NCBI GenBank assembly: GCA_963765895.1
Contig: CAVXZB010000057.1
Coordinates: forward strand, 1-42,121
From: an uncultured Nitrososphaeraceae archaeon
GTDB lineage: Archaea; Thermoproteota; Nitrososphaeria; Nitrososphaerales; Nitrososphaeraceae
Length of the DNA stretch: 42,121 nucleotides
Direction of reading: 5' to 3'
Position 1 is the stretch's first letter. The number at the start of each line of letters is the position of its first letter. Below are positions 5,398 through 28,033 of the stretch, piece by piece. The position numbers were made by a program, and so were the translations under genes. A model generated the notes under the pieces. The model did no database searches and was not told where the DNA came from. It worked only from the letters and a program-made list of their open reading frames with translations.

Positions 5398-6657
5398 CTA
5401 ATCCCGGTTTCTTTCTTCCGGAGGCTTTATACTTTTAAAATTAAAATATAATGCGACATCGTATACAATTTTCAATGCTCCTCCCAATACAAAGGGGGCA
5501 GATAAAATTGACAGTGATTGTAGTATATAGCCAGCTATTGATGGAGATATTGATTGTGTGATATTTCTTGAAATATTGGTTATTCCTGCTGCTCCGGTTC
5601 TTTCATTCTCTTTAACTACTGCAACCAAATATGATTGCCTTGTGGGTACATCCATTTGAGATAGGGCCATTCTGGCAAGATATAACGCTACGGCCAGTGG
5701 AAAGGTAGGGGCAAATGCGACAAGTATAATCAAAATATTAGAAGGGATATGTGTAAAAACCATTGTATTGATCAGTCCTATTCTATCAGCAATTTTTGCG
5801 GCTGCCAGGTATGAGAATGCGGTAAGAACTCCTGCTACAGAGAAAATATAAGATAGTGTTGTTAAATCAACACCAAATTTAGTAAAAAACCACAACGATA
5901 CTATACTTTGAATGACAAAACCACCAGCGAAAGAATCTAGGGCAAAAAGAGAAGATAGTTTACCGACGATCTGCTTGGATTGTGGTGATAGGGTTTCTCT
6001 CAGTGGTTTATGCCTCATACTATTGGTCTGCACCTCTACTTTATTTGAAATCAAATAGTAAATGCCTAATACTGCAAGTCCAATGATACTATAAAGTAGA
6101 AATAATGGTCTAATGGATTGGATTTGGTTTAATCCGTACTGCTGTGCAAGTATTTGTGGTAAACCGGAAAGAAGAACACCAGCAGACATTGCAAAGGTTC
6201 CAACCATATTGTAAAGAGCATAGACCGTATTTCTTTTGTTTATGTCATTAACCATTTGAGGTAATACTGCTTGTTCTATTGATAAGAAAGCACCTGTTTC
6301 AGTTCCAGTTACATTAATTGTCCCTATCAAAGCAGATATGATTAATGCTATATAATTAGTTGTTAGGAAAAATATTAATCCAGATAAAGACATTAACGCT
6401 GCATACATGATTAGTATTTTTCTTCTACCTACTCTATCTGCATAAAAACTAGCAATTAAAGTAAAGATTACACTATTTACTAAGGTAGCAGTTAGTATTA
6501 AACCAATGTAAAAATCCTCAAATCCAACTAACTTTAGATAGATTGCAAGAATTACGCTCAGAAAACCATACGCAAATGTTCTTAGCGTTCTTGCGGCTAA
6601 AAGTAGTTTGCCATCTTTAGACAACCAACGAAGTGAGGCAATTATTTTGGCGTCCAT
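5398..6657 (-). CDS. MFS transporter
   Basis: About 12 hydrophobic segments, with motif A as ADRVGRR and ADRIG. Confidence 0.92.
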   Translation of the reverse strand: MDAKIIASLRWLSKDGKLLLAARTLRTFAYGFLSVILAIYLKLVGFEDFYIGLILTATLVNSVIFTLIASFYADRVGRRKILIMYAALMSLSGLIFFLTTNYIALIISALIGTINVTGTETGAFLSIEQAVLPQMVNDINKRNTVYALYNMVGTFAMSAGVLLSGLPQILAQQYGLNQIQSIRPLFLLYSIIGLAVLGIYYLISNKVEVQTNSMRHKPLRETLSPQSKQIVGKLSSLFALDSFAGGFVIQSIVSLWFFTKFGVDLTTLSYIFSVAGVLTAFSYLAAAKIADRIGLINTMVFTHIPSNILIILVAFAPTFPLAVALYLARMALSQMDVPTRQSYLVAVVKENERTGAAGITNISRNITQSISPSIAGYILQSLSILSAPFVLGGALKIVYDVALYFNFKSIKPPEERNRD

Positions 6658-6896
6658 TCTAATTCCATACGAATTTCAAGCTTGTACTTCTCTTTTGCAT
6701 AGAGAAATTTAAAGGCTATTGGGATGATTGGGGTTATAATGGGATTTAAAGTCTTATCTTTAGATTGAAAAATGTCACCTGGAGTTATTTCTTCTTGTAC
6801 TGCGCTGGTACATTTCATTTTTTGTTATCTTGTATTTTTAAGGAATAGATCTGCTATACATTAGCAATAGTAAACCTGCATTCACTTAACAAGAGT

Positions 6897-7409
6897 TCAT
6901 TTCGTTGTTTGCGGATGAGTCTCAAGCCATTTACTGGCTCTAATGGATAGTAGTTCAAAGTTTTCTCTAAATTGTGGATCATCCCATTCTTTTCGTATCC
7001 CCATAATAACATCCTTGGATCTTTCCCATTCAGTACGTAAACTTCCAAATCTATGAAAATAAAGATCTTCATTAAGGAAGCCATATTTGATTAATAATCC
7101 TGCCAGTTCAAATTTCGAAGTAAACCTTTCAAAAAGCTGGAATTCTCTGCTGCCCTGAGGGTATTTATCCTTAAATTCTTGGATTGATGATGGAATTTCG
7201 TCTCTATGCATTTTAGCCCAAAACCATTCTGCAGCCTCAAAGTCTATAGCCGTATTATACAGCTCAGCTAATCTAAGGAGTATATTAACATCATCTATTG
7301 TTGGTGTTTTTGTTTTAATCGCTTTTCTGACTCGTTCCATATTTTTTCTTTGTTTTGAAGTATTTTTTGTTAATGATACTTTAGAAACAGTTTTTTGTCG
7401 CCTAGCCAT
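6897..7409 (-). CDS. Hypothetical protein (DUF4760-like); probable ATG start at 7409
   Basis: Basic N-terminus followed by a helical domain with FELAGLLIKYGFLNEDL...FRENFELL. Confidence 0.6.
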   Translation of the reverse strand: MARRQKTVSKVSLTKNTSKQRKNMERVRKAIKTKTPTIDDVNILLRLAELYNTAIDFEAAEWFWAKMHRDEIPSSIQEFKDKYPQGSREFQLFERFTSKFELAGLLIKYGFLNEDLYFHRFGSLRTEWERSKDVIMGIRKEWDDPQFRENFELLSIRASKWLETHPQTTK

Positions 7410-7514
7410 ACTAACACATACTTGCAACTGTAGCAATTAAATATATCCAGATAACTTGATGGAAGAAACAAAAAATCGGAAACACATAGGATGGTTTGGT
7501 TTGTTTATCTCTAG

Positions 7515-7724
7515 TTATCTTTTCATACTTTCCATAACCTCATCTGACACTAATATACCATATTCTTTTTGATATCGTTCGAGAAAACGTATAATCAGAT
7601 ATCTTATAAGCTGATTCTTATCACTCAATGAATACTTTTTTGCGACATTGGTCTTTAGAAACTTGTCAAGGGATTCAGCCATTTGCTTGGAAATTTGAAT
7701 ATATGTCCAATCTTGTCTTGCCAT
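7515..7724 (-). CDS. Ribbon-helix-helix (CopG/Arc-like) regulator
   Basis: 69 aa. Beta-strand WTYIQIS followed by two helices (KQMAESLDKFL / DKNQLIRYLIIRFL). Confidence 0.7.
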   Translation of the reverse strand: MARQDWTYIQISKQMAESLDKFLKTNVAKKYSLSDKNQLIRYLIIRFLERYQKEYGILVSDEVMESMKR

Positions 7725-7772
7725 CCTGCATTAACCTTTATTCTATTAATTGCTGAATCAATTAAAAATAGT

Positions 7773-7851
7773 TTACCTTTTGCTCTGGGTAAGAGCCTTA
7801 CCCATATGCAGTGGTAAGGTATTTATTTGTCTTACCCGTATGTAAAGGTAT
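7773..7851. promoter_or_regulatory. Three TTACC-N10-GGTA(A/T) operator-like boxes in a divergent promoter
   Basis: 7773-7792 TTACC ttttgctctg GGTAA; 7798-7817 TTACC catatgcagt GGTAA; 7832-7851 TTACC cgtatgtaaa GGTAT. Confidence 0.75.
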
Positions 7852-7908
7852 GACAAAGAATTGCATGTATAAATCATCCCCACATAAAGGGAGAGAACAA
7901 TTGGTGGC

Positions 7909-8263
7909 ATGAATATTCTAGAAATTTTTTATCCATTAGATTCTACAATTATAGTCGGAGGACTTATAGGCTTTATGATTGGCTATGTTATTCGCAAGAT
8001 TATTAAAGTTATTTTGTTTGCTCTAGGCGGAGTGTTTTCATTTATAATATACTTGCAATATCGAGGACTAATTAGTGTGAATGACGATAAAGTCCAACAT
8101 TTTACCTATGCTCTAACTAATTCCATTGCAAATTCTACTACAAATATCCTATTATATCAAGGAAACAAGTTTACCATCATTCCTTTTTGGATACCTGATT
8201 TAACTATTCCATTTGCAGGAAAGTATGGCAGTTGGTGTTACTGCTGGATTTATGAGAGGTTGA
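7909..8263 (+). CDS. FUN14-family membrane protein (+1 frameshift near 8221)
   Basis: GGLIGFMIGYVIRKIIK...LQYRGLISVN pattern. Removing one A in ggaaagt restores the typical end AGSMAVGVTAGFMRG*. Confidence 0.8.
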
Positions 8264-8270
8264 AGGAAGT

Positions 8271-8997
8271 ATGAATTTCAACATATTAAATAAAGTATTC
8301 CAGAAAATTTCGGTCCAAGAGAATAGCCCCATTAAATACGGAGTCAGACAGGTTAACAGATTATTTGATCCTGTCATTGGCTTTGATGACATAAAGGAGA
8401 TATTTCAATTATCTTTACATGCAGACAAACCCGTTCATATCCTGTTAGTTGGACCCCCTGCGATCAGCTAAATCGTTATTTATGAGCTGTCTTACCAAGT
8501 TGGAACGATCTTATTATGCAGTAGGTAGTAGCTCCACTGGATCTGGGATATTTGATTATCTGTTTGAACACAGACCAAGGTACTTCATAATGGACGAAAT
8601 AGAAAAGATGAGTAAAAGAGATCAAGCCAGTCTACTAAATTTAATGGAATCTGGCTTGCTATCTGAATTAAAACATAGGCAACAAAGAACAACTCAATTA
8701 AAGACATGGGTTTTTGTTAGTGCAAATAACACAGATAAACTGTTAGCTCCATTATTAACAAGGTTTACGGTCATACACCTCAAACACTACGCTAGAGAAG
8801 AATTTGTAGAAATTGCTGTTAGTGTCTTGAGAGATGAAGGAATTGAGAAAGATGTTGCTAAATTTATAGCTGAATTAGTATTCGATAAATTGAGCAAAAA
8901 TATAAGAGAATGTATCAGAATTGCTAGGTTGGCAGACAATAACATTGCAAAGGCTCAACGAGTTGTCGATATGCTAACTACATACGGTAATAGATGA
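8271..8997 (+). CDS. Small MCM-like AAA+ ATPase (+1 frameshift in Walker A near 8462)
   Basis: Joining the two ORFs gives HILLVGPPASAKS (Walker A), IMDEIEKM (Walker B), SANN (sensor 1) and LLTRF (Arg finger); about 241 aa. Confidence 0.85.
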
Positions 8998-9071
8998 GTA
9001 AAACTATAGGGATATACTAAGAAGATCTCCATATACCTTTTACTTTAATTTTAGGGTATTACTATACCCGC

Positions 9072-10220
9072 TTATTGGAGTGGATCTTCCTTCTCGTTCC
9101 CATATGTTTGTATAGGAAGCACAGCCTTTGAAGCTAGAAGCGACTTTTTAGTCAGCTGTGAAGACATTGAACCAGAAATAAATGCTTCTATTAGTCGGTT
9201 AATACATACTTGCTCCATCTCTTTTACCATCCTATTAAAGAATTATTCTGCTATGTCTACTAGAACCTTCGAGGAAGCAACGTCATCAATAGCATTTTCT
9301 TGTTGATAGCATAACTGATCATTTGTAGACGGTCCATAATTATACTGTTCAATCATATCAAATTCCGCTACCCGTGTCTCAGTTGTTGTCAATGCTGCCA
9401 CTGATAAATTATAATAAAGAATATTGAATTTTACAGGATCTCTTCGACATGAATCTATGATCGATTGAAGGGCTATTAGCAATACATGTCTATGATTCAT
9501 TAAATTTTGTTCAATTATTTGTTTGACTAATTCTTTAATCCTTTTAAGACTTTCGTTGTTATCATGAAATTGTCTAATAACAGATTCTAGTTTTTCTTTT
9601 TGCAATCGCAATTTAGCTAGCTCTAAACATTCTTCCTTGCAGGATGAACGATATTGATTTATTATCTGTGATTCTTCTGATATGTCGTTGCTTAATTGTT
9701 GAAAGGTTCTAGCTGCATTCAAATTCCTGGCGTTTAATGATGCCTCTTCAAGTCTGAGGTCTTGGCATTTTCGTTCAATTGATTGAATATCATTATTAGC
9801 TATTTTAAGCAAGTTAACCACATGTGGTACATTCATTTTTGCAGCCTTTGCTGCTTTACACAAATTTACAAAATATGATATGTCATCCTTGAATTCTAAA
9901 TACAGCTTGGTAATATCATCAAGTTCGCGTAGCTTCAAATATTCCATATAGTATTGAGTTACCTGAGCTTCTCCTAGGTTTAACTTGATGGCTGCTTTAA
10001 GCGTTGTATTACCTTTAGAAAAAAGTTCATAGGCTTGTACGAACAAGGATTTATGTTCCTGTCGCTCTTTTTCTTCCTTTGCCTTGTTTATAATCTCCCC
10101 GATATCACGAAGAGATATTTTCATCTCTTTAGCTATCTGCCTATAATTTTTGTTCTGATTAAAGTGCATGTCTAAAACACGTTCTTCTCTCTTTCTTGCC
10201 CAATATGCGATTTGAATCAA
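9072..10220 (-). CDS. HTH + coiled-coil hypothetical protein with an in-frame stop at 9243
   Basis: N-terminal NYRQIAKEMKISLRDI HTH and a long heptad region. The frame stays open for 56 codons after the TAA at 9243, to a stop at 9072. Confidence 0.7.
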
Positions 10221-10567
10221 AAACTGTTCTCATGTCAATCCATATTATAAAAGCTGCATTTAAAATGAAAATAACCTATTACCAGCTTGTACACCCTGCT
10301 ATCAGCATTTTTTCATATGTAGCCTAGTTGTATCCTCTTATTTTCATGTTGTTGTCATCTATTATCACCTGTTTTCGTATGTTATCATACAATTTTTGCT
10401 GAACTCAAAAATTGGTTTATGAAGACAATCTATTATGGCTAAAAAAATTTGGATTAATTATATAATATTGAACAAACGCAATAGCAACAACAAGAAAATG
10501 ACTCTACATCATCAACCATAATAGAGCTTAATATCTATTCTAAATATTTTCAATCACACTATACTTA

Positions 10568-11460
10568 GAGCCTATCCCAAAATTATCCTCCTGTATATAA
10601 CAATACAACAACCCAAACATACTAGCGCAAAATAGTTTTCTAACTTCTTTTCGTATCTGACCAAAAGTTTTCTGAACCTGTTGTGCCAGGAGTTAGTTCT
10701 CTCAACAACCCATCTTCTCTTAATATGATGATTGCTGCGTTTTGTTGTAGATTGTTCTCCTCTATGTCGAATGTGTGATAAGTATCCTTTCTTGATAACA
10801 TCATCCTTAGTCTCCTGAAAATCATATCCTTTGTCAAGACAAAGATTCTGTTTCTTTTTAAACATCTTAGAAGACGGTCTTTTAATTACGATGTTATCCA
10901 ATGTGTTTATAGCTGCCTTCATATCGTGCGTATTAGCCGCAGTAATAACAACAGATAATGGAATACCCTGCCCATCAGTTAATACATGACGTTTTGTTCC
11001 TAACTAATTTGCCTCTGTCTGTAGGATTAGGGCCGGTCATTTCCCCCCTAAAGATGCCTTTACAGATACACTATCCAGTGACTGCCAGTTCCATTGAATG
11101 CCTGCTAGATTATCATATACTCTTAACAATCTAGTCCATAATCTCTCAAATACCTCAGATATTGACCATTGCTGAAATCTTCTATGACATGTAGAACCTG
11201 AGCCATATTCCTTTGGCAACATCTTCCATTGACATCCAGTTCTTAATACATATAGAATGCCATCCAGTACTTTCCTAAATGATACTGCTGGACGTCCGAT
11301 TGTATTATCTGGCTTTTCATGTGGAAGGATCATCCTGATTTCATCCCATATTTCATCCGGAATTCTTTTGACAGTGGGAAGATACTTGACCCTATCGTAA
11401 GCCACACATATGAGCAGGATAGTCTCAAGCTATATGTCTATCTATTTTTGGGATAGGTTT
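10568..11460 (-). mobile_element. IS5-family insertion sequence (two-ORF, IS427/IS1031-like), 893 bp
   Basis: TIRs GAGCCTATCCCAAAA (10568-10582) and TTTTGGGATAGGTTT (11446-11460) match at 13/15. TTA flanks both sides (10565-10567, 11461-11463). Confidence 0.92.
10572..11405 (-). pseudogene. IS5-family transposase (OrfA/OrfB), disrupted
   Basis: OrfA has GILYVLRTGCQWKMLPKEYG and ends at a GGGGGGAAA slippery-type site. OrfB has TGPNPTDRGK, DKGYD and RWVVERTNSW. An extra TTAG at 11000-11007 breaks OrfB. Confidence 0.88.
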
Positions 11461-11992
11461 TTACTATCATTACGATCCTTACTTGCATAGACAAAGTTCA
11501 ATTTCTGCGCTTAAGATATCCGTAATATTTAGAAAGCATGGTAAATATAGTACGATACAAAGTTTCTGAACTCGTCAGGCAATCCTGAATGTATTGCATT
11601 GTACGGCATACCAACTGATTATAATCTAATTAATGTTCCCTGTCTATATGAATTCATTTAATTCGCTAAGTATGCCTCTTTATGACTCCAAATTCAGCTC
11701 TTTAACTTAAGTAAAAAAGCTAAAAAAGGAAAATAACAACCATTTATAACAACTATATATGAAAAGGCAATCTTTACTCATTAAAATATCTTTATGTAAA
11801 AAATAATGACATTGAGAATACATCATTAATAAATTATAAGAACTCTGATAGAAGATCCTAAAGCTAACCTGCTCGAGTTCAGAAATACAACTTTTGCATC
11901 TGGTGAAACATCGCTAGATTTCATACTTGAAATAACGACATCAGTCTGACTGAACAAAGTATTCTAGAAATTCCGCTTTAAGTTGGGACCTA

Positions 11993-13111
11993 TCAATGCC
12001 TTCCACGAGGGGGCCTATTCAAGGTCTCGCACAATTCTTCTAGCAATTCATTATTCCCGAATGGTCTACTAATAACGTCCAACTTATCATTTGGAAAATC
12101 CATAATGTTGTTCCTAATATTCTGAGGTGTCCTATTTACTATTACCATTCTTGCTTCCGATCTTCTGTTTAACGCATTCCTAAATGCATTATTAATCGAC
12201 GAGTCTCTGAATGAGAAACCTATAACAACATACACATCGTGATAATTCAACATCTTGCGAAAGTAATTAAACAAATATGAGGAGGGATCCTCTGAGACAT
12301 GTTTGTCGTAGACAGGATAAATCATCTGCCTCCTGAGATATGTCTCCCCCACAAGAGATGTCGGACTTTCTCTCGCAACTACCTTGTTGTCTCGGGACCG
12401 AATCCACCAATCGATAGAACCATGCAGCTTAAGGTCCTGGATTTTCGATAAATCATAATCAGAATCATCCAGGTCCAGATATGGCTCGTTCCAAATATAA
12501 TCTCCAGTAGTAAGTGCTCTCTGCAGGGAATGCTTTGGAGGAGCTACTCTATTTAGATCATATCTTTCAAGAACAAGGTCGTAATTTGTAGTTACAATAT
12601 GTTTAAACAGTAGACCACGGGGATGTTCATTGAGGGCGTTTACATAGGTTGGAGTTATTGATGACTCTAGTGTAAATAACCGACTGTAGTATTCATTTGC
12701 GAGTCGAAAGTTGTAACTGTTGCATGATTCTACTGTCTTCTCTTCAACGGCAGTTCTAATATTATTGTACTCGTCTCTACTAGGTGTTGGTTTTGAATAA
12801 GTAGTGCCCGTGCGATGTGCTAGTGTATAAATATAATGTGTAGAAATTCCTATCTGAGCAGGAATTAATTCCGGTGCTGTTAATAAGTCTAATATTGACA
12901 AGATTACTTCTATATCTATATCGTTTTCGTTTTCAAAGCGTCTATCATTAGGATTCCCAATGAGTGTATCGTAGATATGAGCAAGCAAATCGCCATATCC
13001 CATATCCCTAATGATCTGTGTTGTGATTGTGGTAAGATCACTTAAATCGCCTATTCCAAAAGCCTTAGAGGCTCCAGCGCCCAAAAATAACAATGTCTGC
13101 GGTTGTTTCAA
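11993..13111 (-). CDS. SIR2-like (SIR2_2) domain protein, putative defence NADase
   Basis: LFLGAGAS, TTNYD, KLHGS and IGFSFRD motifs. No sirtuin Zn-binding cysteines. Confidence 0.85.
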   Translation of the reverse strand: MKQPQTLLFLGAGASKAFGIGDLSDLTTITTQIIRDMGYGDLLAHIYDTLIGNPNDRRFENENDIDIEVILSILDLLTAPELIPAQIGISTHYIYTLAHRTGTTYSKPTPSRDEYNNIRTAVEEKTVESCNSYNFRLANEYYSRLFTLESSITPTYVNALNEHPRGLLFKHIVTTNYDLVLERYDLNRVAPPKHSLQRALTTGDYIWNEPYLDLDDSDYDLSKIQDLKLHGSIDWWIRSRDNKVVARESPTSLVGETYLRRQMIYPVYDKHVSEDPSSYLFNYFRKMLNYHDVYVVIGFSFRDSSINNAFRNALNRRSEARMVIVNRTPQNIRNNIMDFPNDKLDVISRPFGNNELLEELCETLNRPPRGRH

Positions 13112-13232
13112 GTTCTTTGATAAATAAATCTTGAACTTAATAGCATTTCAGATTATCCCTTAATCGCCTGATATTCGAATTGGTATAGCAACTCATTCAT
13201 TTTCGTCATAAATCATTGTCAGAAACAAATTT

Positions 13233-13553
13233 TCATTCGTCATTTAGTAATTTTTTCAGTGCTTCGAAAGCTAGGTTCTTTTGAGGCATTTCCTTTACTT
13301 CTGCTAAAAAGCCTTCTGACAAAATAGAAAGTTCTGGCTTACGTATTCCCGCGGCTTCAAAGATGTCGATCATCCTGTCCGAAATGATTGCCTTCGACAG
13401 ACTTTGCTTTATAGCCGTATCAAATTTCTCTTCTTGACTTTCTATATCGGTTTTTGTACTCCTTTTTATTGCAGATTTTATAGCTTGGAATAGACTTACA
13501 TATTCTTTTATTGCGAGAGCATTTTTGTGAGGAACTGACAGAGAAAATGCCTT
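13233..13553 (-). pseudogene. hsdR: Type I restriction enzyme R subunit C-terminal fragment (DUF3387-like)
   Basis: Start-less open frame KAFSLSVPHKNALAIKEYVSLFQAIKSAI...AIKQSLSKAIISDRMIDIFEAAGIRKPELSILSEGFLAEVKEMPQKNLAFEALKKLLNDE*. Confidence 0.85.
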
Positions 13554-13621
13554 TTTCGTTCAATTCTTTATTAATAGTAATTTCTAATTTTTCGTCTAGA
13601 TAGATCCCCTGCTGCCTGTGA

Positions 13622-14947
13622 CTAACCAGCATTTCTAGGAAAAGATGCTGTTATGTTTGCCCTAGCTTTATCATAGGTAACTGGATCAATCTCTATACCT
13701 ATCCCTTTTCTCCTTGAGCCATAGTTTAGCGCAGCTTTTATGTTAGTACCAGCCCCCATCATCAAGTCCAATACTACATCGCCAGTGTCTGGGAATGTTA
13801 GTCTAGAAATGATTTCTTCTGCCTCTTTGGTGCTTTGTTGCCATTCATGAAGATCTTTTTCTGGTCTTTGTGATGTAATAAGGTTTTGTAGTTGACCATT
13901 TGTTATTAACTCAGGGCCCTTATAATACCACAGCAGATCTTTTTTCTTCCTTGAAATATGTAAATGTTGGTCATGACTGAATGGTCCCTGGAGCTGTACT
14001 GAAATATCTGTATTATATATTAGACCTTCTGCTTCCAAAATATTCATATATCTACGTTTCATTATGTCTCCAAATAATGAGACGAAATGACCGTTAGGTT
14101 TTAGCTTGGCCATGGCTATTGGTGGGATAGCCTCATAAAGGTACCAAAAATCTTCTGCATATGGAGGGTCAAGAAGTATCAGCGAAATTGAACCATCAGG
14201 TATTTTGGCAAGTATTAAAGGGTCGCGGAAATCACTACAGTAAATTGTAACTCCATCAGGAATTTGAAATTTAGCATTTATTCCGATGGATTGTTGAGCT
14301 AATTTCTCCTGTTTCTTGGCAGCTTTAATCTTTTTAAACAGGTCATAAGGTTCTATTTTGCCTTCACTTAGAGCTTTTAACTGTTGTTCACTAGAGTTAT
14401 CCTTAACTTGTTTCCACTGCCAAATAGTTGTACAGCTAACTCCAACAATATCGCCAATTTTACGATTTATTCTACCGTCTTTCTTCTCAAGGTCGTTTGA
14501 GATAATGTCATTATTATCATCAATAATTCTAGTTGGCGTCAAATTTTTGACACCAATTGGCTGTGTGCCCTTTTTACCCTTTTGGTATTTTAATTCTTGG
14601 TCAGCCTTGACTTCGGCTTCAAACTCATGTCTTATTCTTTCCGCTGCCATATACAATTCCCACTTGTTACAATGACGACGTGCATAGTTAAGCTGGTTTA
14701 TAGCTCTAATCTTTTGTTCTTCGTTATGATATTTTCGCACTTCTACCTTAGGTTTTATACCCAACTCTTCATAGACCTTTAATCTATGATGTCCATCTAG
14801 AATACAATTTTCTTCATCTATGATTATTGGCAGTTCTTGACCTACTCTTATAGAGTCCTTTAACCTCTTGTATTCACTAGTAGTATAAGGACGGGTTAGG
14901 ACTTGATATTTAGGATTGATTTTGAATTCTGGATTAATAGTAGTCAA
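13622..14947 (-). CDS. ParB/Srx-domain + N6/N4 DNA methyltransferase fusion
   Basis: ParB box ILDGHHRL. MTase motif IV DPPY precedes motif I VLDLMMGAGT (beta-class order), followed by GIEID. Confidence 0.88.
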   Translation of the reverse strand: MTTINPEFKINPKYQVLTRPYTTSEYKRLKDSIRVGQELPIIIDEENCILDGHHRLKVYEELGIKPKVEVRKYHNEEQKIRAINQLNYARRHCNKWELYMAAERIRHEFEAEVKADQELKYQKGKKGTQPIGVKNLTPTRIIDDNNDIISNDLEKKDGRINRKIGDIVGVSCTTIWQWKQVKDNSSEQQLKALSEGKIEPYDLFKKIKAAKKQEKLAQQSIGINAKFQIPDGVTIYCSDFRDPLILAKIPDGSISLILLDPPYAEDFWYLYEAIPPIAMAKLKPNGHFVSLFGDIMKRRYMNILEAEGLIYNTDISVQLQGPFSHDQHLHISRKKKDLLWYYKGPELITNGQLQNLITSQRPEKDLHEWQQSTKEAEEIISRLTFPDTGDVVLDLMMGAGTNIKAALNYGSRRKGIGIEIDPVTYDKARANITASFPRNAG

Positions 14948-15141
14948 TTTAGCTATTTCTGCCTCCAGACTTGACTAGATCTTGTGTAGCCATATTTCAT
15001 GTGGCTATTCAGTCTCCTTTCTTAGAATATGCTCTATGTCGTGCCTGACTTGTCTTCTAGATTTCTCTGACAACTCGTCTCTATAGCAAGAATTAGCCAT
15101 TGTTTTACTTCTCTTGAGATAATAGAGAATTCTACTAGACG

Positions 15142-15292
15142 ATCCTGTATGCGTTATACATGCAGGTTTTATATTTGTCTTGATTTTGTCACCAAAACAC
15201 CGATTTTTCTGTATAGGTATTACAGAAGAATAGTATATTTGAAAGCAAAATCGGATACAATCAATAAATGACATGTATAATGCATACAGGAT
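15142..15292. repeat. Nested inverted repeat, candidate replication origin
   Basis: atcctgtatgcgttatacatg (15142-15162) versus catgtataatgcatacaggat (15272-15292), 20/21 complementary. Inner pairs ccgatttt/aaaatcgg and ttctgta/tacagaa. Confidence 0.7.
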
Positions 15293-15293
15293 T

Positions 15294-17939
15294 TTATAGA
15301 ACATTCTTACTACTACTCTCCTTAACAGACGTGTTGAATACTAGAGTAAGCGGATTTATGTTTACAATCGATATTAGACCATCACCAACTAAGCCCTGTT
15401 TGAAACGATCCGCGATATCCCTGTATTTTGAGCTGTTATTGCTAACAGGACTTTTTCCTAAATAAGTCTCAACTAGGCTATTTTTGCTAGCTGCATAATT
15501 TATGCAGTCCTGAAATTCAAAAGGCATATTGGGACTTTCCTGCAAGAATTTTGCTATTTCGTGACAAGTAGCCTCCCGTGGATCTTCTACCACTACTACA
15601 TTACTGTCAAAAGCCTGATACATTTTGGGCAGGAAATCGATTGCTTCTTTTGCAATTTCAGATGTAGCTATGTTTGAAAAATGCAGTCTTGCAAAGGCAA
15701 GTGACGTCCTTATAATGGTCTCAAGAACCCTGTTAGTTGGAAAAACCGTGATATTTGGGCTAGACCAATAGTCAGTTATCATAGCCTCTGCTTCCTCGCT
15801 TAATATTGGCTTGAAAGTCTTTGCATGTTGTATTACCTTACGAAGAAACGTATGATCTTCCTTTATATCCTGGGATTTTAGAATAGCCATCTTCCTTTTT
15901 GCGTAGCTTATCTTCTGATTCCTATCCCTTAGTGGTTTAAATACAAAGAGGAGATCATATCTATCCAAAAGCTCTTTGCGTAAAGGTATCTGCCCTTTGT
16001 CAATAACATCCATATACCAATTACCATGCTCAGGATTTGTTGTTGCTAACACTGTGGTGGGAGAGTCTATCTCCTTATGAAATCCGTACTTATCTAAAGT
16101 TAATATTCCTTCTTCCATAACGTCAAATAGATGTCTTTGATCCTCCATGGACAGAGAACCGATTTCATTTAGAATGCACATAGAGTTCCTTGCTTGAGGT
16201 AGTACTCCGTTTCGTAACACATACGAGTCGTTTTCTTTATCCATAATTGCCGTAATGCTTTTGCCACTAGCTCCCTGAGTTGAAGAATATCTACTATTGG
16301 GTTGACCTAACTTGTAGGCGGCTCGTCCCAATTTTGATTTTGCGGTTCCAGGAGGGCCTATAAACAGTCCATGAATTCTGCCTCGAAAATCTTCAGTCTC
16401 TGGAGCACCGATGTACATTAAAATTATTCCCAATTTTTTGTCCTCATGACCGATTACGGTAGGTACAAGCATATTCACAAGCTTGGCTATCATCTCTGGC
16501 TGTTTTGCAAATTCCTCAACTTCTAAAACATCTTCTTCAGTCACTACAGTACTCTCATTTTGGGGTGTTTCATATTCAATTTGATTTGCAAAAAGATATG
16601 TCATTCGTCTTGCATTTTTACCACTACTCTGCTGAATCACATGGAGCTCTCCAGCGATCATAGCTTTTTCGCCGTTCCTTACATTGAATGTATTATTATC
16701 AAATAACACCACGTTGAGATTTTCCAGTTCATTCTGCTTTTCTACGTCCTGTAACTGAATAATCATCGCGCTAACTTCACTATGGTGTATGAGACCATAA
16801 CTGGCTGAATTACAAGAAATACATTTTCGCTTATTACTATTGGAGATGGAATTTGGCAAAGAGAATAATAGCGGGCTATGGCTCTCAGTATCAGATTGGC
16901 CGCAGTTAGAACATTCGAATTCTGTCTCCTTTATAACTTGAATGACAGAAGATAATCCCACAATGAGTCCACTTACTGCAGCTTTGCCACTACTCCGTCT
17001 AATTGCTTCTGCAACTGATATCAATTCTGTTCTAGCACCCACAGAGTTCATAGTATCGATTTCCATCTCTTGATTTGCTACATGTGTTACTGCATCACTC
17101 CACATACTTTCGAATTCTTTGATATCCAAAGGTGGCCTGCAAAAGAGGTTATTAAATTTGATACATAGTTGTCTCATTTCTTCAAGTGTTTTTGTTCGAA
17201 TGAATTCATGAAGCTTTGCATTCATCTCTTTTAACAGTTCGATATGTCGTGAGCCTTCGTTAACAGTCTTTGCAGACTCATTTTTTTCTTGAATCCCCCT
17301 ACTTCGAAGGTCACCGTTAGTGAGATACTCGATGCTATACTTCGAAAGAATATCATTAATGATCTGCTCCAGGTTTTCTGATAGTCCAGGGATGATTTGA
17401 TTAAGGAAACTGTATCGATGTCCACCTTTGTGCATAGATGGTGTACAGAACATTAATCGATTGGGCCCTTTGACTTCGATGGCTGGCATTGTCTCTTTGT
17501 TAAACCACATCCTGCCAGCTTCACTGTCTTTATTTTTGAATGGATGCTTGGAATAGACATAAATATGAAGTCTTGTCGCATCGTCGGGATGTTGCTCTAT
17601 TAATGTTGATGCAGCAAGCTCTTGTAGTGTTGCTGTCTTTCCATCAATTATACTTGCATTACAGATTTCATCGATTGCTTTCTGATTATCCAGATCTATA
17701 CCATTAAGATAATATCCAAAATGATCACCTCGCCAGACCTTTCCGGTAACTACTGCTGCACCCCTGATGAATGCTCCATTTTTCTTTAAATCTTCAAATT
17801 CCTCAGATGACATAGCCGAGTTTTGCATTGGTTTCCAACTTTCAGATACCCTCTTATTTCTAGTATCTACAGGACACACATTTGCGCCAATAGTATAGAA
17901 CCAAAAGTCTAACGTGGAAAAATATTCTGATGTGATCAT
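15294..17939 (-). CDS. PrimPol (AEP) - PriCT - MCM helicase fusion replication protein
   Basis: AEP motifs GIDLD and RLHIY; PriCT-like EGSRH...CRPPL; Zn finger CSNC...CISC; Walker A GPPGTAKS; Walker B-like ILNE; Arg finger LLDRYD. Confidence 0.9.
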   Translation of the reverse strand: MITSEYFSTLDFWFYTIGANVCPVDTRNKRVSESWKPMQNSAMSSEEFEDLKKNGAFIRGAAVVTGKVWRGDHFGYYLNGIDLDNQKAIDEICNASIIDGKTATLQELAASTLIEQHPDDATRLHIYVYSKHPFKNKDSEAGRMWFNKETMPAIEVKGPNRLMFCTPSMHKGGHRYSFLNQIIPGLSENLEQIINDILSKYSIEYLTNGDLRSRGIQEKNESAKTVNEGSRHIELLKEMNAKLHEFIRTKTLEEMRQLCIKFNNLFCRPPLDIKEFESMWSDAVTHVANQEMEIDTMNSVGARTELISVAEAIRRSSGKAAVSGLIVGLSSVIQVIKETEFECSNCGQSDTESHSPLLFSLPNSISNSNKRKCISCNSASYGLIHHSEVSAMIIQLQDVEKQNELENLNVVLFDNNTFNVRNGEKAMIAGELHVIQQSSGKNARRMTYLFANQIEYETPQNESTVVTEEDVLEVEEFAKQPEMIAKLVNMLVPTVIGHEDKKLGIILMYIGAPETEDFRGRIHGLFIGPPGTAKSKLGRAAYKLGQPNSRYSSTQGASGKSITAIMDKENDSYVLRNGVLPQARNSMCILNEIGSLSMEDQRHLFDVMEEGILTLDKYGFHKEIDSPTTVLATTNPEHGNWYMDVIDKGQIPLRKELLDRYDLLFVFKPLRDRNQKISYAKRKMAILKSQDIKEDHTFLRKVIQHAKTFKPILSEEAEAMITDYWSSPNITVFPTNRVLETIIRTSLAFARLHFSNIATSEIAKEAIDFLPKMYQAFDSNVVVVEDPREATCHEIAKFLQESPNMPFEFQDCINYAASKNSLVETYLGKSPVSNNSSKYRDIADRFKQGLVGDGLISIVNINPLTLVFNTSVKESSSKNVL

Positions 17940-18157
17940 TAAGCATCACTTTTCGATCTGCTGTGACATACGCAACTACAAATTACAGTATGCGTACCTA
18001 TGCAGCTTTCATATCGTCCTCTGCATTTATTATGTGGTGCCAAACAGGTAGTTACAGTTATTGTAATGATTTCTTTTTGGTTGGTAGTGTCATTATCTTC
18101 TGAAGATAAAACCTTATTTCCCAGTAAATCGCTATTATTCAAGGTATTGAATCGCAC
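17939..18157 (-). CDS. Small Cys/His-rich (putative zinc-binding) protein
   Basis: CLAPHNKC...C...CSCVCH. Its stop overlaps the PrimPol-MCM start by 1 nt. Confidence 0.6.
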   Translation of the reverse strand: MRFNTLNNSDLLGNKVLSSEDNDTTNQKEIITITVTTCLAPHNKCRGRYESCIGTHTVICSCVCHSRSKSDA

Positions 18158-18390
18158 TCCTCTGTGGTTCCGATACTAGGAACACAACCAGCTACCAAAG
18201 CCGAGCGGCCAACTCTATTCTTTGGTTGTTGGGATCCTTCCTTTTCTTTTCCTTCGTATTCAACAGCTATATCCAATATTTTGGAAATAATTTGATCAAA
18301 AGATTGTCCCTTCTTTCCTAAATCACAGAGGGCTTCTCTTGTCCTTCTTGATATTGCTATAGTTGTTGCATTATTTTCTAATGAAGGCAT
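18139..18390 (-). CDS. RHH/CopG-like regulator
   Basis: TTIAISRRTREALCDLGKKGQSFDQIISKIL pattern. First gene of the replication operon. Confidence 0.75.
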   Translation of the reverse strand: MPSLENNATTIAISRRTREALCDLGKKGQSFDQIISKILDIAVEYEGKEKEGSQQPKNRVGRSALVAGCVPSIGTTEECDSIP

Positions 18391-18403
18391 AAGATATAGA
18401 GGC

Positions 18404-18418
18404 TATAACGTTTATAAG
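18404..18418. promoter_or_regulatory. Shared bidirectional TATA box
   Basis: TTTATAAG (+) / CTTATAAA (-) at 18411-18418 lies 21-28 nt from both divergent ATGs (18390 and 18439). It overlaps the palindrome tataa-cgt-ttata. Confidence 0.6.
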
Positions 18419-18438
18419 TTCAATATTTTTTACCCCCC

Positions 18439-19772
18439 ATGACAATGCCTTTCAGAAGACATAATTTAGGGTTCAAATGCCCTGGCTGCGGATGCCAAAA
18501 TGGCTCATTGAGAAGGAAGATTATCAAACTTAGTCAAGAAACCTTAACTGAAAAAAATATGCCAGCTAAGAAGGTGAAAAGGTATATTCTTGGCGATAGA
18601 TTATTACGTGAAGAAGCTGTTTTGCTTAAAAAAAATGCATATGTGTACAAATATGACACTTTTTTTGGGTTAGATGACCAAGATCGAAAACCAATTATGA
18701 ACTTATCTGAAAACGACATAAGTAAAGTCCCTAACACATTCATACAAAAGATACAAAGAATCACATTAACTCTTATGACGATTACTGATATTTTACCGTA
18801 CCTTCTTCAAAAATATCCTGAACTACGAGCCGGTTTTGAAGAATTTATAGCCGCCAATAGACTGCTTGTAGAGTACTCCAAGCCAATTATAGATGGGCGA
18901 TATGATAGGAGCTGGCCTGAATGGCTGCAGATTGGAGAATATGCAAACACCATGGGATATAGAGCTGCTTCCAGAAAGTATTATTCAATAAAGGACGGAA
19001 AACGTCAGTACATCTCTCCCACACACATCAAGCAGAAAATAAAATTACTAAATGAATTTGAAACGAAGTTGGAAACTGTCCCAGATATGGTAGAATACTT
19101 TAAACGATTGATGAATATAGTAAGTAATGATTCTGAACTTTCAGAAAAATGCAAGCAAATAGGAAAGAAATATGCTGAAAATATCACCTCGACTGTGATG
19201 CAATCTCGCGATGAAGGATACAGGATCTATTCATACATCTATTATTATATCAGACATTATGATTCAAAAATATATAAAAAAAGGATGTCTGATTACAAAA
19301 AAGGAGAATAAAAAAATCACAGGTCACAGGTAAGCAGGAATGCGGCCCATTCAAAGAAAATGATATTCTTAAAGCGAAACATGAATATTCTCAAATTAAG
19401 GAAATGAATAATACAACAATAGGATTATGCTCTAAAATTGCCTTTATTCTCTCCATTCAACCATCCTCAGCCACATTATTAACAGAAATTATAGGAAACG
19501 AAACTAAAGATGTGATTGAACTGTCGTTGGAGGTTCTTAAAGAAACCGGCGTAGTGAAAAAGATTCATTTAAACAATAAATCAGAAAGCTATGATGTACT
19601 ACATGAGAACATCAATACTTCGTTTTGCGAAGGTTTGTATTACACACTAGATAAATCCAATCCCAATGTAGATCCAATGCTTGAGGACTATATGGGTCGT
19701 TGTACTACAGAGGAAATAGAAGGCATTGTAAATAAAATATCAGAGTATCAGAATACTAGAATAATAAGATAA
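18439..19772 (+). CDS. Hypothetical protein with split C2HC zinc-finger motif (one A missing near 19308)
   Basis: Adding one A in ggagaataaaaaaatca fuses the 290-aa and 122-aa ORFs through GEIKKSQVTGKQECGPFKEN...KEMNNT. Confidence 0.7.
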
Positions 19773-19829
19773 TTTTGGAATAACCTACTTAGAAAACTAC
19801 AAAAATTCTAGCTTTATAAATTATGTTTA

Positions 19830-21320
19830 TTAGGTCTCTGTGACATTCAATATTCCTGATTCGTAAAGCATTTTTGCAGTTTGATTTATCTGATTTTGGT
19901 TTTTGAGGGCTCCGAGTGCAGACATCAGATTATGTAGTTGGGATTGCATGTCGTTAAATCTCTTCTCAATAATATCCAACTTATTTTTTTGCTGCTGATC
20001 CAATTCAAGCGTCTCGTTATAGGCATCATACGTTAATACCATTCTACATTTAGCACAGAATTTGCCATCTGGTTTGTTTGGTTCATTGCAATTTGGACAC
20101 TGTTTTGGCCTAAGTACATCTGATAATTTCTGATCCTTTGTGATAATACCATATGCTTCCAACAGACTTTCACTTGCTTCATTTCCAAAGTAATGAAGGT
20201 ATTTTTGTGGCATGTTTGAGCCTGTAGTCCAGCCCGCAAATTGTCTTAGGGTATGTTCTTTTAGTATCTTTGATTTCTCTGTTAATGCACTATGTCTTAT
20301 TATATAGGGGTTCCATGGTTTTTGTAGTATCTCTTTTATCTTACTCTTATCCTCTAGTGATACAGAAGAATTTTCTAATAATTTTGGAAAAAACTCCTCC
20401 TTGTATTTGTTATATATCTGATAAATAGTTCCAACACCTATTTTCCTGCCTAGACTTTTTCCATTTCCACAGATAAGTGTTGAGTTTGGATTTCCACTCT
20501 GAGGATGCTCATGATCAAGGTAATCCTTCAAGTATGGAATAGAATTTATCAAAGGGATGTGCCTAGTACCAGTTTTGCCATTGACTAGAACCTCAGCGTA
20601 CTGATGATTGCTCGCAGTTTTGAATACAATATCTTTTATTTTTAACCTCAATATTTCATGAGGCCTACAACTAGTATCACGCGAAATAGTGTGATAGCAT
20701 TTTATACGTTTAGTAGGACAGTATCTTAAGAAGATCCTATCATCTTCCTCAGTCCATAAATCAGTGGGTTTGTAAATTGATTGTTCCTTTCTTTTCAATG
20801 TTGATATATTCTCAATAGCTTCTGGCTTTGGTCTCTTGTTAGGTTCAAGATCAGGGTAGTACAACCATTTGAAAAACCTAGTAAGATGAATTCTATAGAT
20901 ATTATATGTACCAACCCACTTATGCAACGAATCTATCTCCTCTGGCTTGCGAAAACTATCAAGAAACGATACAAGATTATCTTTTGTTACGTGCTTAAAT
21001 AATTTATTATTACAAAAAATTGAAAGATTGGCCAGCACCTTAACAACGTCTCGTCTATAATTATTAGTCAGATTCATCTCTGTTCTCATGGACATAATAT
21101 AATTTGCAATTGTCCAAGCATTTTCTTTTGGTAACTTATAAAGCAATTTCTGAAAATATGGAATTAGACCTGCAGTGACATCTTGGATTTTTCTGTCAAA
21201 TAATACATCATTATCACATGTATGCCTATCAGCAGATGGATTTAAATTGAAAGCTGATCTAGTAACCGTTCCTGTTTTCAAAATACGATCATAACAAGAC
21301 TGGACGAGACATATAAACAT
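19830..21320 (-). CDS. Tyrosine recombinase/integrase with C-terminal zinc ribbon
   Basis: Catalytic SCRPHE, GKTG, YIIRHS, AGW and KYLH motifs, followed by CPNC...CAKC. Confidence 0.92.
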   Translation of the reverse strand: MFICLVQSCYDRILKTGTVTRSAFNLNPSADRHTCDNDVLFDRKIQDVTAGLIPYFQKLLYKLPKENAWTIANYIMSMRTEMNLTNNYRRDVVKVLANLSIFCNNKLFKHVTKDNLVSFLDSFRKPEEIDSLHKWVGTYNIYRIHLTRFFKWLYYPDLEPNKRPKPEAIENISTLKRKEQSIYKPTDLWTEEDDRIFLRYCPTKRIKCYHTISRDTSCRPHEILRLKIKDIVFKTASNHQYAEVLVNGKTGTRHIPLINSIPYLKDYLDHEHPQSGNPNSTLICGNGKSLGRKIGVGTIYQIYNKYKEEFFPKLLENSSVSLEDKSKIKEILQKPWNPYIIRHSALTEKSKILKEHTLRQFAGWTTGSNMPQKYLHYFGNEASESLLEAYGIITKDQKLSDVLRPKQCPNCNEPNKPDGKFCAKCRMVLTYDAYNETLELDQQQKNKLDIIEKRFNDMQSQLHNLMSALGALKNQNQINQTAKMLYESGILNVTET

Positions 21321-21664: not shown

Positions 21665-22217
21665 TCTATGTATATTGAACAGTCAGTCTATACATATGAT
21701 ATCTCATTTTCGGAAATATTTATAATGTGGTATGCTTCATATCGTCTTAGAACAGTTTTTCCTATATAACTAAACCGGATTTGAATCAAATACTATCCTA
21801 TGTTAAAACTTGCTAAAGAACTAGATACTTTGCTTTACAATCACTAATTGCTACTATCTATAGGTATCGGAATTTGTACTGTCGCCAGATGTTTCTGAGC
21901 CAGTGAATCCGTTATAAGTACTGATAGTTTTAGCGTTTATTGAGCTCAGATTAATTTTGTCTTCTATATGCATAGATAGTTTGGTTGGGAAGTAACACGT
22001 GGATATATTCTATTACGAAAATATGTTCCTAAAGTATATATCATAAGATGAAAAGGATTAAGTGCTATCCTGAATTCACTAAATTATATCAAGCAATCAA
22101 ACAACAGCAATCATAGCAAGAGTCAAACCTGAGAACAATCCTTAAAGCTCTTCAGTGTGTTATAGTATAAAGCTTTCATTCATAGAATGTATCTTGCAGA
22201 AAGTAACCATTTATAGT

Positions 22218-25711: not shown

Positions 25712-25791
25712 GTTGTTATAGTTGTTATAGTTGTTATAGTTGTTATAGTTGTTATAGTTGTTATAGTTGTTATAGTTGTTATAGTTGTTAT
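25712..25791. repeat. 9-bp minisatellite (GTTGTTATA) x ~8.9
   Basis: Eight perfect units plus 8 of 9 bases of a ninth. Confidence 0.97.
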
Positions 25792-27138: not shown

Positions 27139-28033
27139 TTGATGGAATCCAAAGAACAGAATGAAATAAAATACAATGGTAGAAAAGTCGCCTCATCTAT
27201 TTTATTGGCTGGACTAGTTCTAAGCTCCGTGCTAGCTGTACTTCTTTATTCTCTGTCCTTCCCAAATTACGCTATTAGCACTGCTAGAGCTCAAAATATA
27301 CAACACAAAAATGTACTTATTGTCACAACAAGTTATAACGTATTAGGAAAGACAGGTTATCCTACAGGTTTATGGCTACCTGAAATGACCCACCCATTTT
27401 TCGCATTGCAAAATGCTGGATTTAATATTACAGTTGCAAGTGTTAAGGGAGGTAATGTTCCTATAGATCCATATAGCGTCCCTTCCAATCCACAAGGTAC
27501 AAACAGCGATGATCCAATCACTGATAAATTTCTGCATACACCAACTGACGTGACAAGGATAAACCATACCGTCCCTATTTCCAATGTTGATCCAAATGAA
27601 TATTCTGCTGTAGTATTCCCAGGTGGAAATGGAGCAACATATGACTTCCCTTGGGATAAAAATGTAAATAAGATTGTTGCTGATATTTATGAACATGGAG
27701 GAATTGTAGCAGACTGTGTGTCATGGTCCTGCAGCTCTTCTAAATGCAACATTATCTAACGGACAATACCTAATAAAAGGAATGAAGGTTACTGGCTTTT
27801 CAAATGAAGAAGAAGCAATAACTGAAATACTAATTGGCAAAAAACATGTGTTACCATTCTTCCTAGAAAATGAACTTCCTAAGCGTGGAGCGACCTATGA
27901 GAAGGTATACGTACATGAACCACTTGTTATCGTGAGCGGTAATGGAAGGCTAATAACAGGACAGAATCCTGAATCAGCCACAAACGTCGGTGAAAAAGTT
28001 GTTGAAATTCTTAAGGGAGGACAAGCAACATAA
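27139..28033 (+). CDS. DJ-1/PfpI (Hsp31-like) protein with N-terminal signal/TM segment (+1 frameshift near 27712)
   Basis: TGLWLPEMTHP, PGGNG, AVCHGP nucleophile (after correction), TGFSNEEE and TGQNPES. Confidence 0.88.

Follow-up and report, generated by a model that had tools for sequence, protein, structure and literature searches.

A 42,121-nucleotide stretch of DNA from an uncultured Nitrososphaeraceae archaeon (contig CAVXZB010000057.1; hereafter the window) carries at 7515-8997 a small regulator gene and, divergent from it, a two-gene unit for a FUN14-family membrane protein and a minimal AAA+ ATPase (Table 1). The G+C content of the window is ~35%, and the nearest relatives of its proteins are from Nitrososphaeraceae. 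The locus is one copy of a cassette conserved in soil Nitrososphaerota, in which the two-gene unit encodes a FUN14 membrane protein of ~110 amino acids (aa) and a stand-alone AAA+ ATPase of ~245 aa related to the motor domain of MCM helicases. An intergenic gap of 184 nt, which holds three operator-like palindromes, separates the small gene from the FUN14 open reading frame (ORF), and only 7 nt (8264-8270) lie between the FUN14 stop codon and the ATPase start codon (ATG, 8271). As sequenced, the window copy makes neither full protein, and its regulator gene is intact; alignments and reading frames at 8220-8222 and 8460-8463 indicate that each lesion is a single extra base. A first-pass annotation, made from the sequence alone, had described a FUN14 gene followed 7 nt later by a ~241-aa ATPase in a corrected frame, and Pfam, the read-through translation and homologue alignments bear this out. 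It had also called the module undescribed, in keeping with our searches: those of the full-text literature turned up no account of a pairing of FUN14 with an AAA+ protein, and those of PADLOC and NCBIfam none of the module.

The FUN14 protein and the minimal ATPase

The FUN14 ORF as sequenced (7909-8274) matches Pfam PF04930 at E = 1.1e-13 and 51.8 bits (cut-off 22.5), the match covering only profile positions 1-52 of 92. By its end at 8274 this ORF is out of frame. Three-frame translation shows the C-terminal membrane helix that it lacks, SMAVGVTAGFMRG, in the +1 frame with a stop codon at 8261-8263, and alignment with intact homologues places the extra base in or beside an AAA run at 8220-8222. 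Full-length matches to PF04930 (profile positions 1-5 to 92) were obtained for five loci of the genome scan described below (L005, L009, L010, L016 and L021). The subfamily comprises 1,217 proteins at E ≤ 0.001, each the representative of a 90%-identity cluster. Its members have three hydrophobic helices; the turn that joins the first two is rich in K/R, and the loop ahead of the third is polar and ~45 residues long. By the positive-inside rule, the K/R-rich turn and the last two or three residues of the protein would be cytoplasmic. Excerpts of a published paper describe the FUN14 family as present in archaea and bacteria with no function assigned, and count 52 archaeal FUN14 genes, mostly in Euryarchaeota (PMC5526904).

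The ATPase gene as sequenced consists of two ORFs (8271-8471 and 8449-8997), the first frame stopping at 8469-8471. Reading GCGA at 8460-8463 as one step yields a protein of 241 aa that contains GPPASAKS, DEIEKM and LLTRF, exactly the motifs that had been listed for it, and 14 homologues align across the break without gaps. Pfam assigns the MCM P-loop to residues 54-93 (8.9e-08, 32 bits, cut-off 23.3) and otherwise only a generic AAA domain. No N-terminal Pfam domain, and so no MCM OB/zinc domain, was found in the ~55 residues that precede Walker A, as the annotation had it; residues 1-30 are of low confidence in the AlphaFold2 model, which has a pLDDT of 90. MCM_lid does not match the ATPase but does match the 881-aa protein encoded further along the window, and the ATPase model ends after a four-helix lid with no C-terminal winged helix. 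The model further predicts a beta-hairpin at residues 129-142, before the sensor-1 strand, and an uninterrupted helix at residues 90-100, so that no helix-2 insert is predicted. An MCM match confined to the P-loop, with no N-terminal domain, MCM-type lid or winged helix, identifies an MCM-related minimal AAA+ protein rather than an MCM.

Relationships of the ATPase were assessed at the level of the family, the single sequence and the predicted structure. A profile of 83 relatives searched against the PDB is topped by MCM chains (best 5.7e-22), with RuvB first appearing at 6.3e-15, and this supports the MCM-like character originally ascribed to the protein. Foldseek of the model returns RuvB as the best match (E 1.2e-11, TM ~0.65, ~230 residues), followed by MCM, Lon and ClpB, and matches of a single-sequence search of the PDB include the Lon AAA+ module (2.2e-05). 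Many homologues are labelled RuvB by JGI; RuvB families including RuvB_N have no Pfam match in the window ATPase at E ≤ 0.01, and no RuvA-like gene was found among the ORFs of 5500-11500. NCBIfam gave only Lon and MCM matches far below cut-off and PHROGs only weak clamp-loader matches, neither database matching FUN14 or the small regulator, and the ESM Atlas, queried with the natural homologue P0003, gave only unnamed AAA clusters from Nitrososphaerota.

The ATPase family counts 1,580 proteins at E ≤ 0.001 (again one per 90%-identity cluster); identity is 60-90% among the best 120 of the 1,580, and mean column identity in the alignment with the 14 homologues is 71%. Residues K67 (Walker A), D108 (Walker B), N152 (sensor-1), R164 (arginine finger) and R212 (sensor-2) are invariant in 83/83 relatives, and E109 is present in 82/83. 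Position 90 is K or R in 75/83 and K134 is kept in 70/83, and the aromatic pore motif is absent. Among relatives further removed (298 cluster representatives at E ≤ 1e-30), lengths of ~320 aa are common, with an N-terminal extension that is winged-helix-like by eye and has no Pfam match.

We note several variations on this architecture. P0161 carries an intein with a LAGLIDADG insertion, after which the best match to the ATPase picks up again near query residue 63, next to Walker A. P0130 has a bPH_2 match (bacterial PH domain, 2.3e-4) and hydrophobic stretches, taken by eye as membrane helices, ahead of the ATPase. Most homologues open with a conserved hydrophobic-basic motif, LF-x-RW-K/R-K, which could be a membrane- or partner-binding peptide; the window clade has NILNKVF.

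Conservation, regulation and decay of the cassette

A pattern-based scan of species-representative genomes yielded 36 loci, 28 from Nitrososphaerota (L001-L028) and 8 that are ordinary MCM genes (L029-L036). Including the window there are 29 places with the ATPase, of which 27 are assessable for an upstream gene, the contigs of L019 and L022 starting at the gene itself. FUN14 lies directly upstream on the same strand at 9/27 (the window, L005, L007, L009, L010, L016, L018, L020 and L021). Linkage was called with our own hidden Markov model on six-frame translations, and Pfam FUN14 was confirmed in all 8 loci outside the window; the Pfam scan of flanking genes covered 84 of the 223 ORFs called. 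The FUN14-linked ATPases fall in three separate, well-supported clades of a maximum-likelihood tree (25 rows, five fragmentary loci omitted: L018, L023, L025, L027 and L028). Conservation of the adjacency in other genomes had been set beforehand as the test that could refute the module, and the adjacency is conserved. It is kept while FUN14 identity falls to 29%, and pairwise divergences of FUN14 and ATPase are correlated (8 pairs, L018 omitted; Mantel r 0.79, reached in 0/5000 permutations), although such correlation is expected of linked genes and alone is no proof of co-evolution. Both genes are complete only in L005, L009 and L016.

A more distant arrangement was seen in L026 (1339-2755), where a distant ATPase paralogue (297 aa, 35% identity) has a divergent ribbon-helix-helix (RHH)-like ORF upstream (RHH_6, 0.078) and a truncated FUN14-like ORF downstream, beginning at the paralogue's stop codon (E 1.7e-4 and 0.002 with our own profiles; no Pfam match). 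A second ATPase paralogue lies 1.6 kb further on.

The small divergent gene had been annotated as an RHH repressor. Its divergent orientation and its conservation hold, the 69-aa protein being itself one of 66 found at E ≤ 0.01, with 52-100% identity, and the RHH fold is left unconfirmed by Pfam, PDB, Foldseek and hhalign alike. The protein has no Pfam match even at E ≤ 1, no NCBIfam match and no PDB sequence match in a profile search at E ≤ 10; its model finds nothing better than E = 2 in the PDB with Foldseek, and hhalign detects no match to the RHH-like regulators of L016 and L020. The AlphaFold2 monomer (pLDDT 78) has unstructured residues 1-10 and helices at 13-23, 33-55 and 61-68. RHH regulators form dimers and have an N-terminal beta-strand followed by two helices; the unstructured N-terminus and helices of the monomer model are compatible with RHH and non-diagnostic, and an RHH fold is possible.

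Between the divergent start codons the pattern TTACC-N10-GGTA gives 5 matches over the two strands at three sites, the first two sites matching on both strands. The rest of the 42,121 bases contains none, and shuffled sequences average 0.16 matches, with 0/100 shuffles reaching 5; the triple operator-like array proposed in the first-pass annotation is thus present and particular to this spacer. A repeat search of the spacer returned inverted repeats I1 and I3 and a direct repeat, D1. A/T-rich, TATA-like stretches were recognized by eye at ~7820-7827 and ~7868-7874, with an operator directly after a TATA-like stretch. No RNA families were found by Rfam over 6500-11600, and a sigma-70 promoter scan was uninformative, the host being an archaeon.

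The layout of regulator and repeats recurs elsewhere, as divergent small ORFs with palindromes or direct repeats. A divergent small ORF is present in 8/8 FUN14-linked places having upstream DNA and also in the ATPase-only places L001, L015 and L026. The window palindrome was not found upstream of FUN14 in other loci (2 unrelated matches among the 36 loci), whose spacers carry different, regulator-specific repeats in its place; for example, L010 and L021 have homologous regulators (67% identity) and two copies of CCACGTGGATA in each spacer. Regulator families above the Pfam cut-off are MazE/AbrB in L009 and DUF2080 in L007. The L015 regulator reaches the MazE cut-off and is 48% identical to that of L005, the L001 regulator is of MazE type, and those of L016 and L020 match RHH models below cut-off (3.5e-4 and 3.7e-4, the L020 model being Antitox_RHH). 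No family was assigned to the regulators of the window, L010 and L021. Each spacer having its own repeats and the regulator families differing while the layout is kept, the regulator has been exchanged repeatedly.

The cassette is multi-copy in some genomes, with seven contributing 2-4 loci each, and its flanking genes vary among loci. Broken ATPase genes were seen in 9/29 places (the window, L010, L015, L018, L022, L023, L025, L027 and L028) and broken FUN14 genes in 4/9 (the window, L007, L018 and L020), and the window's own clade includes truncated or frameshifted ATPases from metagenomes (P0015, P0016 and P0131). Several copies, varied neighbours, swapped regulators and frequent decay together indicate an accessory function rather than core housekeeping.

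The window copy is probably inactive. The first-pass annotation had raised the prospect that both frameshifts are real and the locus dead; both genes are indeed frameshifted as sequenced, and real mutation and assembly error are not told apart. The window ATPase has 2 private changes at sites otherwise invariant among 15 sequences, no excess over the other 14 (range 0-7), and one of the two, K90G, is common to P0002, an intact metagenomic ATPase of 242 aa. P0002 reads GPPGSAKS at the break and is identical to the window ATPase over the first ~148 residues except at positions 64 and 149; its last third is divergent (90% identity overall), a pattern that suggests recombination between cassette copies.

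A live locus whose frameshifts arose in assembly is a substantial possibility, although one we place clearly below even. At least four other window genes look split, a density that is high for a real genome and, over 42 kb, points to either an error-prone assembly or a pseudogene-rich genome. The extra base in FUN14 lies in or beside an AAA run, the ATPase frame is otherwise clean and free of excess private substitutions, and a near-identical intact protein exists in P0002. Conversely, the ATPase insertion falls outside a homopolymer (G-C-G-A), independent lesions are common in the cassette in short-read assemblies (L010 has stops and frameshifts, L015 a TGA and L007 a TAG), and the closest locus, L010, has multiple ATPase lesions. 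With other split genes in the window, no excess of private changes and K90G present in an intact protein, recent mutation and assembly error are indistinguishable here.

Two further explanations of the lesions were rejected. Programmed frameshifting is at odds with homologues that are unbroken at both sites and with lesions elsewhere that differ in kind and position, and old decay, sought as an excess of private substitutions, was not seen in the window ATPase.

In L015, the TGA (2151-2153; GPP*SGKS, where homologues have Ser or Ala) falls in the same Walker A codon as the window insertion at 8460-8463. Two independent hits on one Walker A codon may be coincidence or may reflect selection for loss of ATP binding. 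An intact ATPase homologue (P0004, 89%) and a 69-aa homologue of the regulator (P0399, 93%) come from the same source, the longest contig being 7,132 nt for each; the two may lie on one contig and represent an intact version of exactly this cassette.

Neighbouring genes and mobile DNA

Downstream of the cassette come, in order, a 325-aa helix-turn-helix (HTH) gene, an insertion sequence (IS) and a mobile-element-like block with SIR2-like, methylase, MCM-motor and integrase-like genes (Table 1). A 22-nt direct repeat, 86% identical between its copies at 10209-10230 and 21778-21799, brackets the IS and the SIR2, methylase, MCM and integrase genes and is a possible attachment-site pair; if it is real, the cassette lies outside the element. 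The repeat search found no boundary that would place the cassette inside the neighbouring element, and no tRNA genes were found. The annotated position next to mobile DNA is correct as adjacency, and a link beyond adjacency is not borne out, the flanks differing between loci and no close phage or plasmid relatives being found.

Table 1 Coordinates of the cassette and of other features in the window
Feature	Position	Strand	Details
Small regulator gene	7515-7724	-	Intact ORF, 69 aa; candidate repressor, divergent from the FUN14-ATPase pair
Three operator-like palindromes, TTACC-N10-GGTA	7773-7792, 7798-7817, 7832-7850		Between the divergent start codons; pattern search and shuffles
FUN14-family membrane protein gene	7909-8263	+	~117 aa, 3 predicted membrane helices; Pfam PF04930; one extra base near 8220-8222
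Minimal MCM-related AAA+ ATPase gene	8271-8997	+	241 aa read through; one extra base in Walker A codons, 8460-8463
Insertion sequence, two-ORF transposase	10572-11405	-	IS4/IS5-type layout; DUF4096 (1.1e-26) then DDE_Tnp_1_2 (1.2e-09)
Mobile-element-like block	11993-21320		SIR2_2 (PADLOC Aga_SIR2, 9e-25), N6/N4 DNA methylase, MCM protein, integrase
881-aa protein	15294-17939		MCM motor and lid at residues 473-770, ~470 unassigned residues ahead (Pfam)
Integrase-like protein	19830-21320		phrog_1, 1.4e-16
Split-looking DJ-1/PfpI gene	27139-28030		Adjacent ORFs
Split-looking MFS gene	31702-32989		Adjacent ORFs
Split-looking UDP-glucose dehydrogenase gene	34584-35670		Adjacent ORFs
Split-looking MFS gene	38505-39796		Adjacent ORFs

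Besides the cassette, the window and L010 have in common homologues of a patatin-like gene (39% identity) and of the 325-aa gene (28%), which hints that the two may represent the same chromosomal neighbourhood. The 325-aa protein (9243-10220, minus strand; L010 homologue 8370-9347, minus strand) has a weak N-terminal HTH resembling sigma-70 region 4 (6.8e-4). This gene was rejected as a cassette member as it recurs only in L010, and so was the DUF4760 gene at 6897-7436, which recurs in no other locus.

Two other features of the window are recorded here. A perfect 9-nt tandem repeat of 8.9 copies (25712-25791) encodes Cys-Tyr-Ser triplets inside a 96-aa ORF. Paralogous small HTH genes (1-294 and 2655-2918, both on the minus strand; 84% identical over 57 residues) flank nucleotidyl-transferase and pterin dehydratase genes.

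Proposed function and comparison with known systems

We infer, tentatively and with a confidence somewhat short of even, that the cassette encodes an AAA+ motor that is controlled by a repressor, works with FUN14 as its partner in the membrane and is accessory to the cell, the window copy being inactive. The regulator would bind the three palindromes between and beside the two promoters and hold the FUN14-ATPase pair off. Upon expression, FUN14 would insert into the membrane, and the ATPase, assembled into a ring through the arginine finger R164, would act there, FUN14 serving as anchor or adaptor in a way comparable to the dependence of RuvB on RuvA. The conserved N-terminal motif of most homologues, if it does bind membrane or a partner, would favour such action. 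The substrate moved would be nucleic acid rather than protein, an assignment favoured by the basic residues in both predicted pore loops and the lack of an aromatic-hydrophobic motif. The accessory role could lie in a stress response or in dealing with DNA of foreign or mobile origin. DNA transfer, superinfection exclusion or abortive defence, which the first-pass annotation had suggested, stay conjectural. A bolder proposal, that FUN14 proteins are ancestrally membrane docking partners of ring ATPases and that in soil ammonia-oxidizing archaea the pair is a repressor-gated, membrane-anchored nucleic-acid motor importing, exporting or excluding DNA, is one we regard as unlikely.

Several observations weigh against the repressor-controlled motor, and each has to be set beside other explanations. 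The case for a nucleic-acid substrate is drawn solely from loop composition, and by its predicted topology the long FUN14 loop, which contains N-x-S/T sites, would face outward, which suggests that little surface is offered to a cytoplasmic ATPase. The pair may instead serve membrane-protein or protein quality control, the ATPase remodelling proteins while tethered to, or acting on, FUN14 and being induced under stress by release of the repressor; we consider this unlikely. The membrane-anchored AAA+ machines FtsH, Msp1 and Bcs1 would be its models. Lon among the PDB matches, Lon and ClpB in the Foldseek results and the stable chromosomal contexts of ATPase-only orthologues speak for it, and the strong conservation of the ATPase fits a cellular role. 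Proteins as substrates are disfavoured by the missing aromatic-hydrophobic pore-loop motif and the prevalence of K or R at pore-facing position 90 and of K134, and by the profile ranking of the DNA motors MCM and RuvB at the top. In addition, the 241 aa include no protease or substrate-recognition domain in Pfam, and proteostasis genes do not usually occur in several copies with many of them decayed.

The coupling of the two proteins that the motor reading presupposes is also open to challenge, given that at 18 of the 27 assessable places no FUN14 gene adjoins that of the ATPase. ATPase-only loci occur in stable contexts, with a ribosomal protein S11 neighbour in L002-L004 and L006, a short-chain dehydrogenase neighbour in L008, L011 and L013, and an alcohol dehydrogenase neighbour in L014 and L017. 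Such contexts in three clades imply that the ATPase can evidently function where FUN14 is not encoded next to it, and its role may be a cellular one. In its strongest form this argument denies any functional coupling: the ATPase would be a soluble accessory factor of DNA repair or replication, a pared-down relative of MCM and RuvB, and FUN14 a neighbour merely co-inherited in some lineages. The winged-helix-like extension of the ~320-aa relatives and the intein of P0161 are in line with this account, inteins being common in replication proteins, and correlated divergence is no obstacle to it, linked genes showing that in any case. We nevertheless judge it improbable. Three clades retain the adjacency even as FUN14 identity drops to about 30%, the two genes share a strand with short spacers, a single divergent regulator with its repeat set lies upstream of both genes in 8/8 places, and even the distant L026 paralogue has a weak FUN14-like remnant directly downstream.

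A third set of observations also weighs against the motor reading. None of the three cassette proteins matches PADLOC-DB 2.0.0 (5,027 models) at E ≤ 0.01, tblastn against 50,697 phage records gave 2 weak clamp-loader matches and no close relative, and tblastn against 72,556 plasmid records gave no match. FUN14, RuvB and MoxR do not occur as words in four supplementary files of a survey on thaumarchaeal integrated elements. Conservation of the ATPase as strong as that observed is unusual for conflict genes, and the broken state of the window copy, which enters the motor reading as inactivity, may be an assembly artefact.

Another alternative is a toxin-antitoxin-like or abortive-infection cassette, in which FUN14 would be a membrane-damaging effector, the ATPase would sense infection or control the effector, and an antitoxin-type regulator (MazE/AbrB or RHH) would silence the unit. 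Antitoxin-typical regulators do occur (MazE in L009, L001 and L015, Antitox_RHH below cut-off in L020, DUF2080 in L007), and the distribution is patchy and multi-copy with frequent inactivation. Neighbours are suggestive at some places: L005 has an HsdM methylase, L022 a DUF4062-NACHT protein next to its broken ATPase, and the window a SIR2 gene and the patatin-like gene shared with L010, the last two of which do match PADLOC. Yet defence-type neighbours were seen at only 3/9 FUN14-linked places (84/223 ORFs scanned), the cassette proteins match 0 of the 5,027 models, and Pfam and PADLOC give no toxin family for either FUN14 or the ATPase. The regulator is divergent rather than co-transcribed as in type II pairs, and FUN14 and the ATPase are far more conserved than typical defence effectors. 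We give this scenario a low probability and return to the repressor-controlled motor with a membrane partner as the preferred reading.

Both protein families are abundant in soil metagenomes and neither has an assigned function in prokaryotes, so that a conserved, separately regulated pairing offers a testable handle on both. It bears on the role of a bare MCM-type motor without DNA-binding domains and on that of FUN14 outside mitochondria. Ammonia-oxidizing archaea are key nitrifiers whose accessory biology is barely characterized by experiment, and a membrane-linked DNA motor or defence-type cassette in them is of interest. Unlike the window copy, relatives L005, L009 and L016 hold intact pairs. 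Were the docking proposal true, the cassette would be an unrecognized archaeal device for DNA handling or immunity and would offer a first hint of function for the prokaryotic roots of the FUNDC mitophagy receptors of eukaryotes.

Among known systems, the MCM helicase (PF00493) is the nearest solved relative of the ATPase by family profile, and the two have in common a Walker A of the form GPPxxxKS, an SRF-type arginine finger, sensors 1 and 2 and, in the model, a pre-sensor-1 hairpin. The ATPase differs from MCM in lacking the N-terminal OB/zinc domain, MCM_lid, the C-terminal winged helix and, in the model, the helix-2 insert, and its gene is paired with that of a membrane protein, not with replication genes. 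RuvB, the best structural match, resembles the ATPase over the AAA+ core and lid only; the two are ~20% identical, and the C-terminal winged-helix domain of RuvB is absent (241 aa versus ~330). RuvB with RuvA is the analogy we work with, in which a bare AAA+ ring depends on a second protein for access to its substrate, except that the cassette has no RuvA gene and the partner would be a three-helix membrane protein. The archaeal Ced DNA-import system combines small membrane proteins with a HerA/VirB4-like ATPase. The logic of small membrane proteins encoded beside a ring ATPase, which moves DNA across or along the membrane, is similar, whereas the ATPase class (AAA+ versus HerA/VirB4-like) differs and the membrane proteins appear unrelated.

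MCM-like helicases of mobile elements are a further group of MCM-related AAA+ proteins that stand apart from the cellular replisome, and mobile DNA also adjoins the window copy. Those helicases carry DNA-binding N- and C-terminal domains, both lacking in the ATPase, which has no plasmid match and only weak clamp-loader matches among phages. One of them, in excerpts of a published account, is Cch of staphylococcal SCCmec (PMC6563490). Type II toxin-antitoxin systems differ from the cassette, in which the small gene is divergent from its partners and no known toxin family is represented. The cassette FUN14 protein is a clear member by Pfam, in the window and 8 loci, of the family that includes FUNDC1, FUNDC2 and yeast Fun14, with the same three membrane helices and long loop between helices 2 and 3. 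FUNDC1 has an N-terminal extension carrying an LC3-binding motif; the cassette protein has no such extension, and its gene forms an operon-like pair with that of an AAA+ ATPase. Its subfamily is from Nitrososphaerota, whereas the archaeal FUN14 genes counted in excerpts of the earlier paper are mostly from Euryarchaeota (PMC5526904). By these comparisons, the cassette would best be described as an adaptor-dependent AAA+ motor under the control of a divergent repressor.

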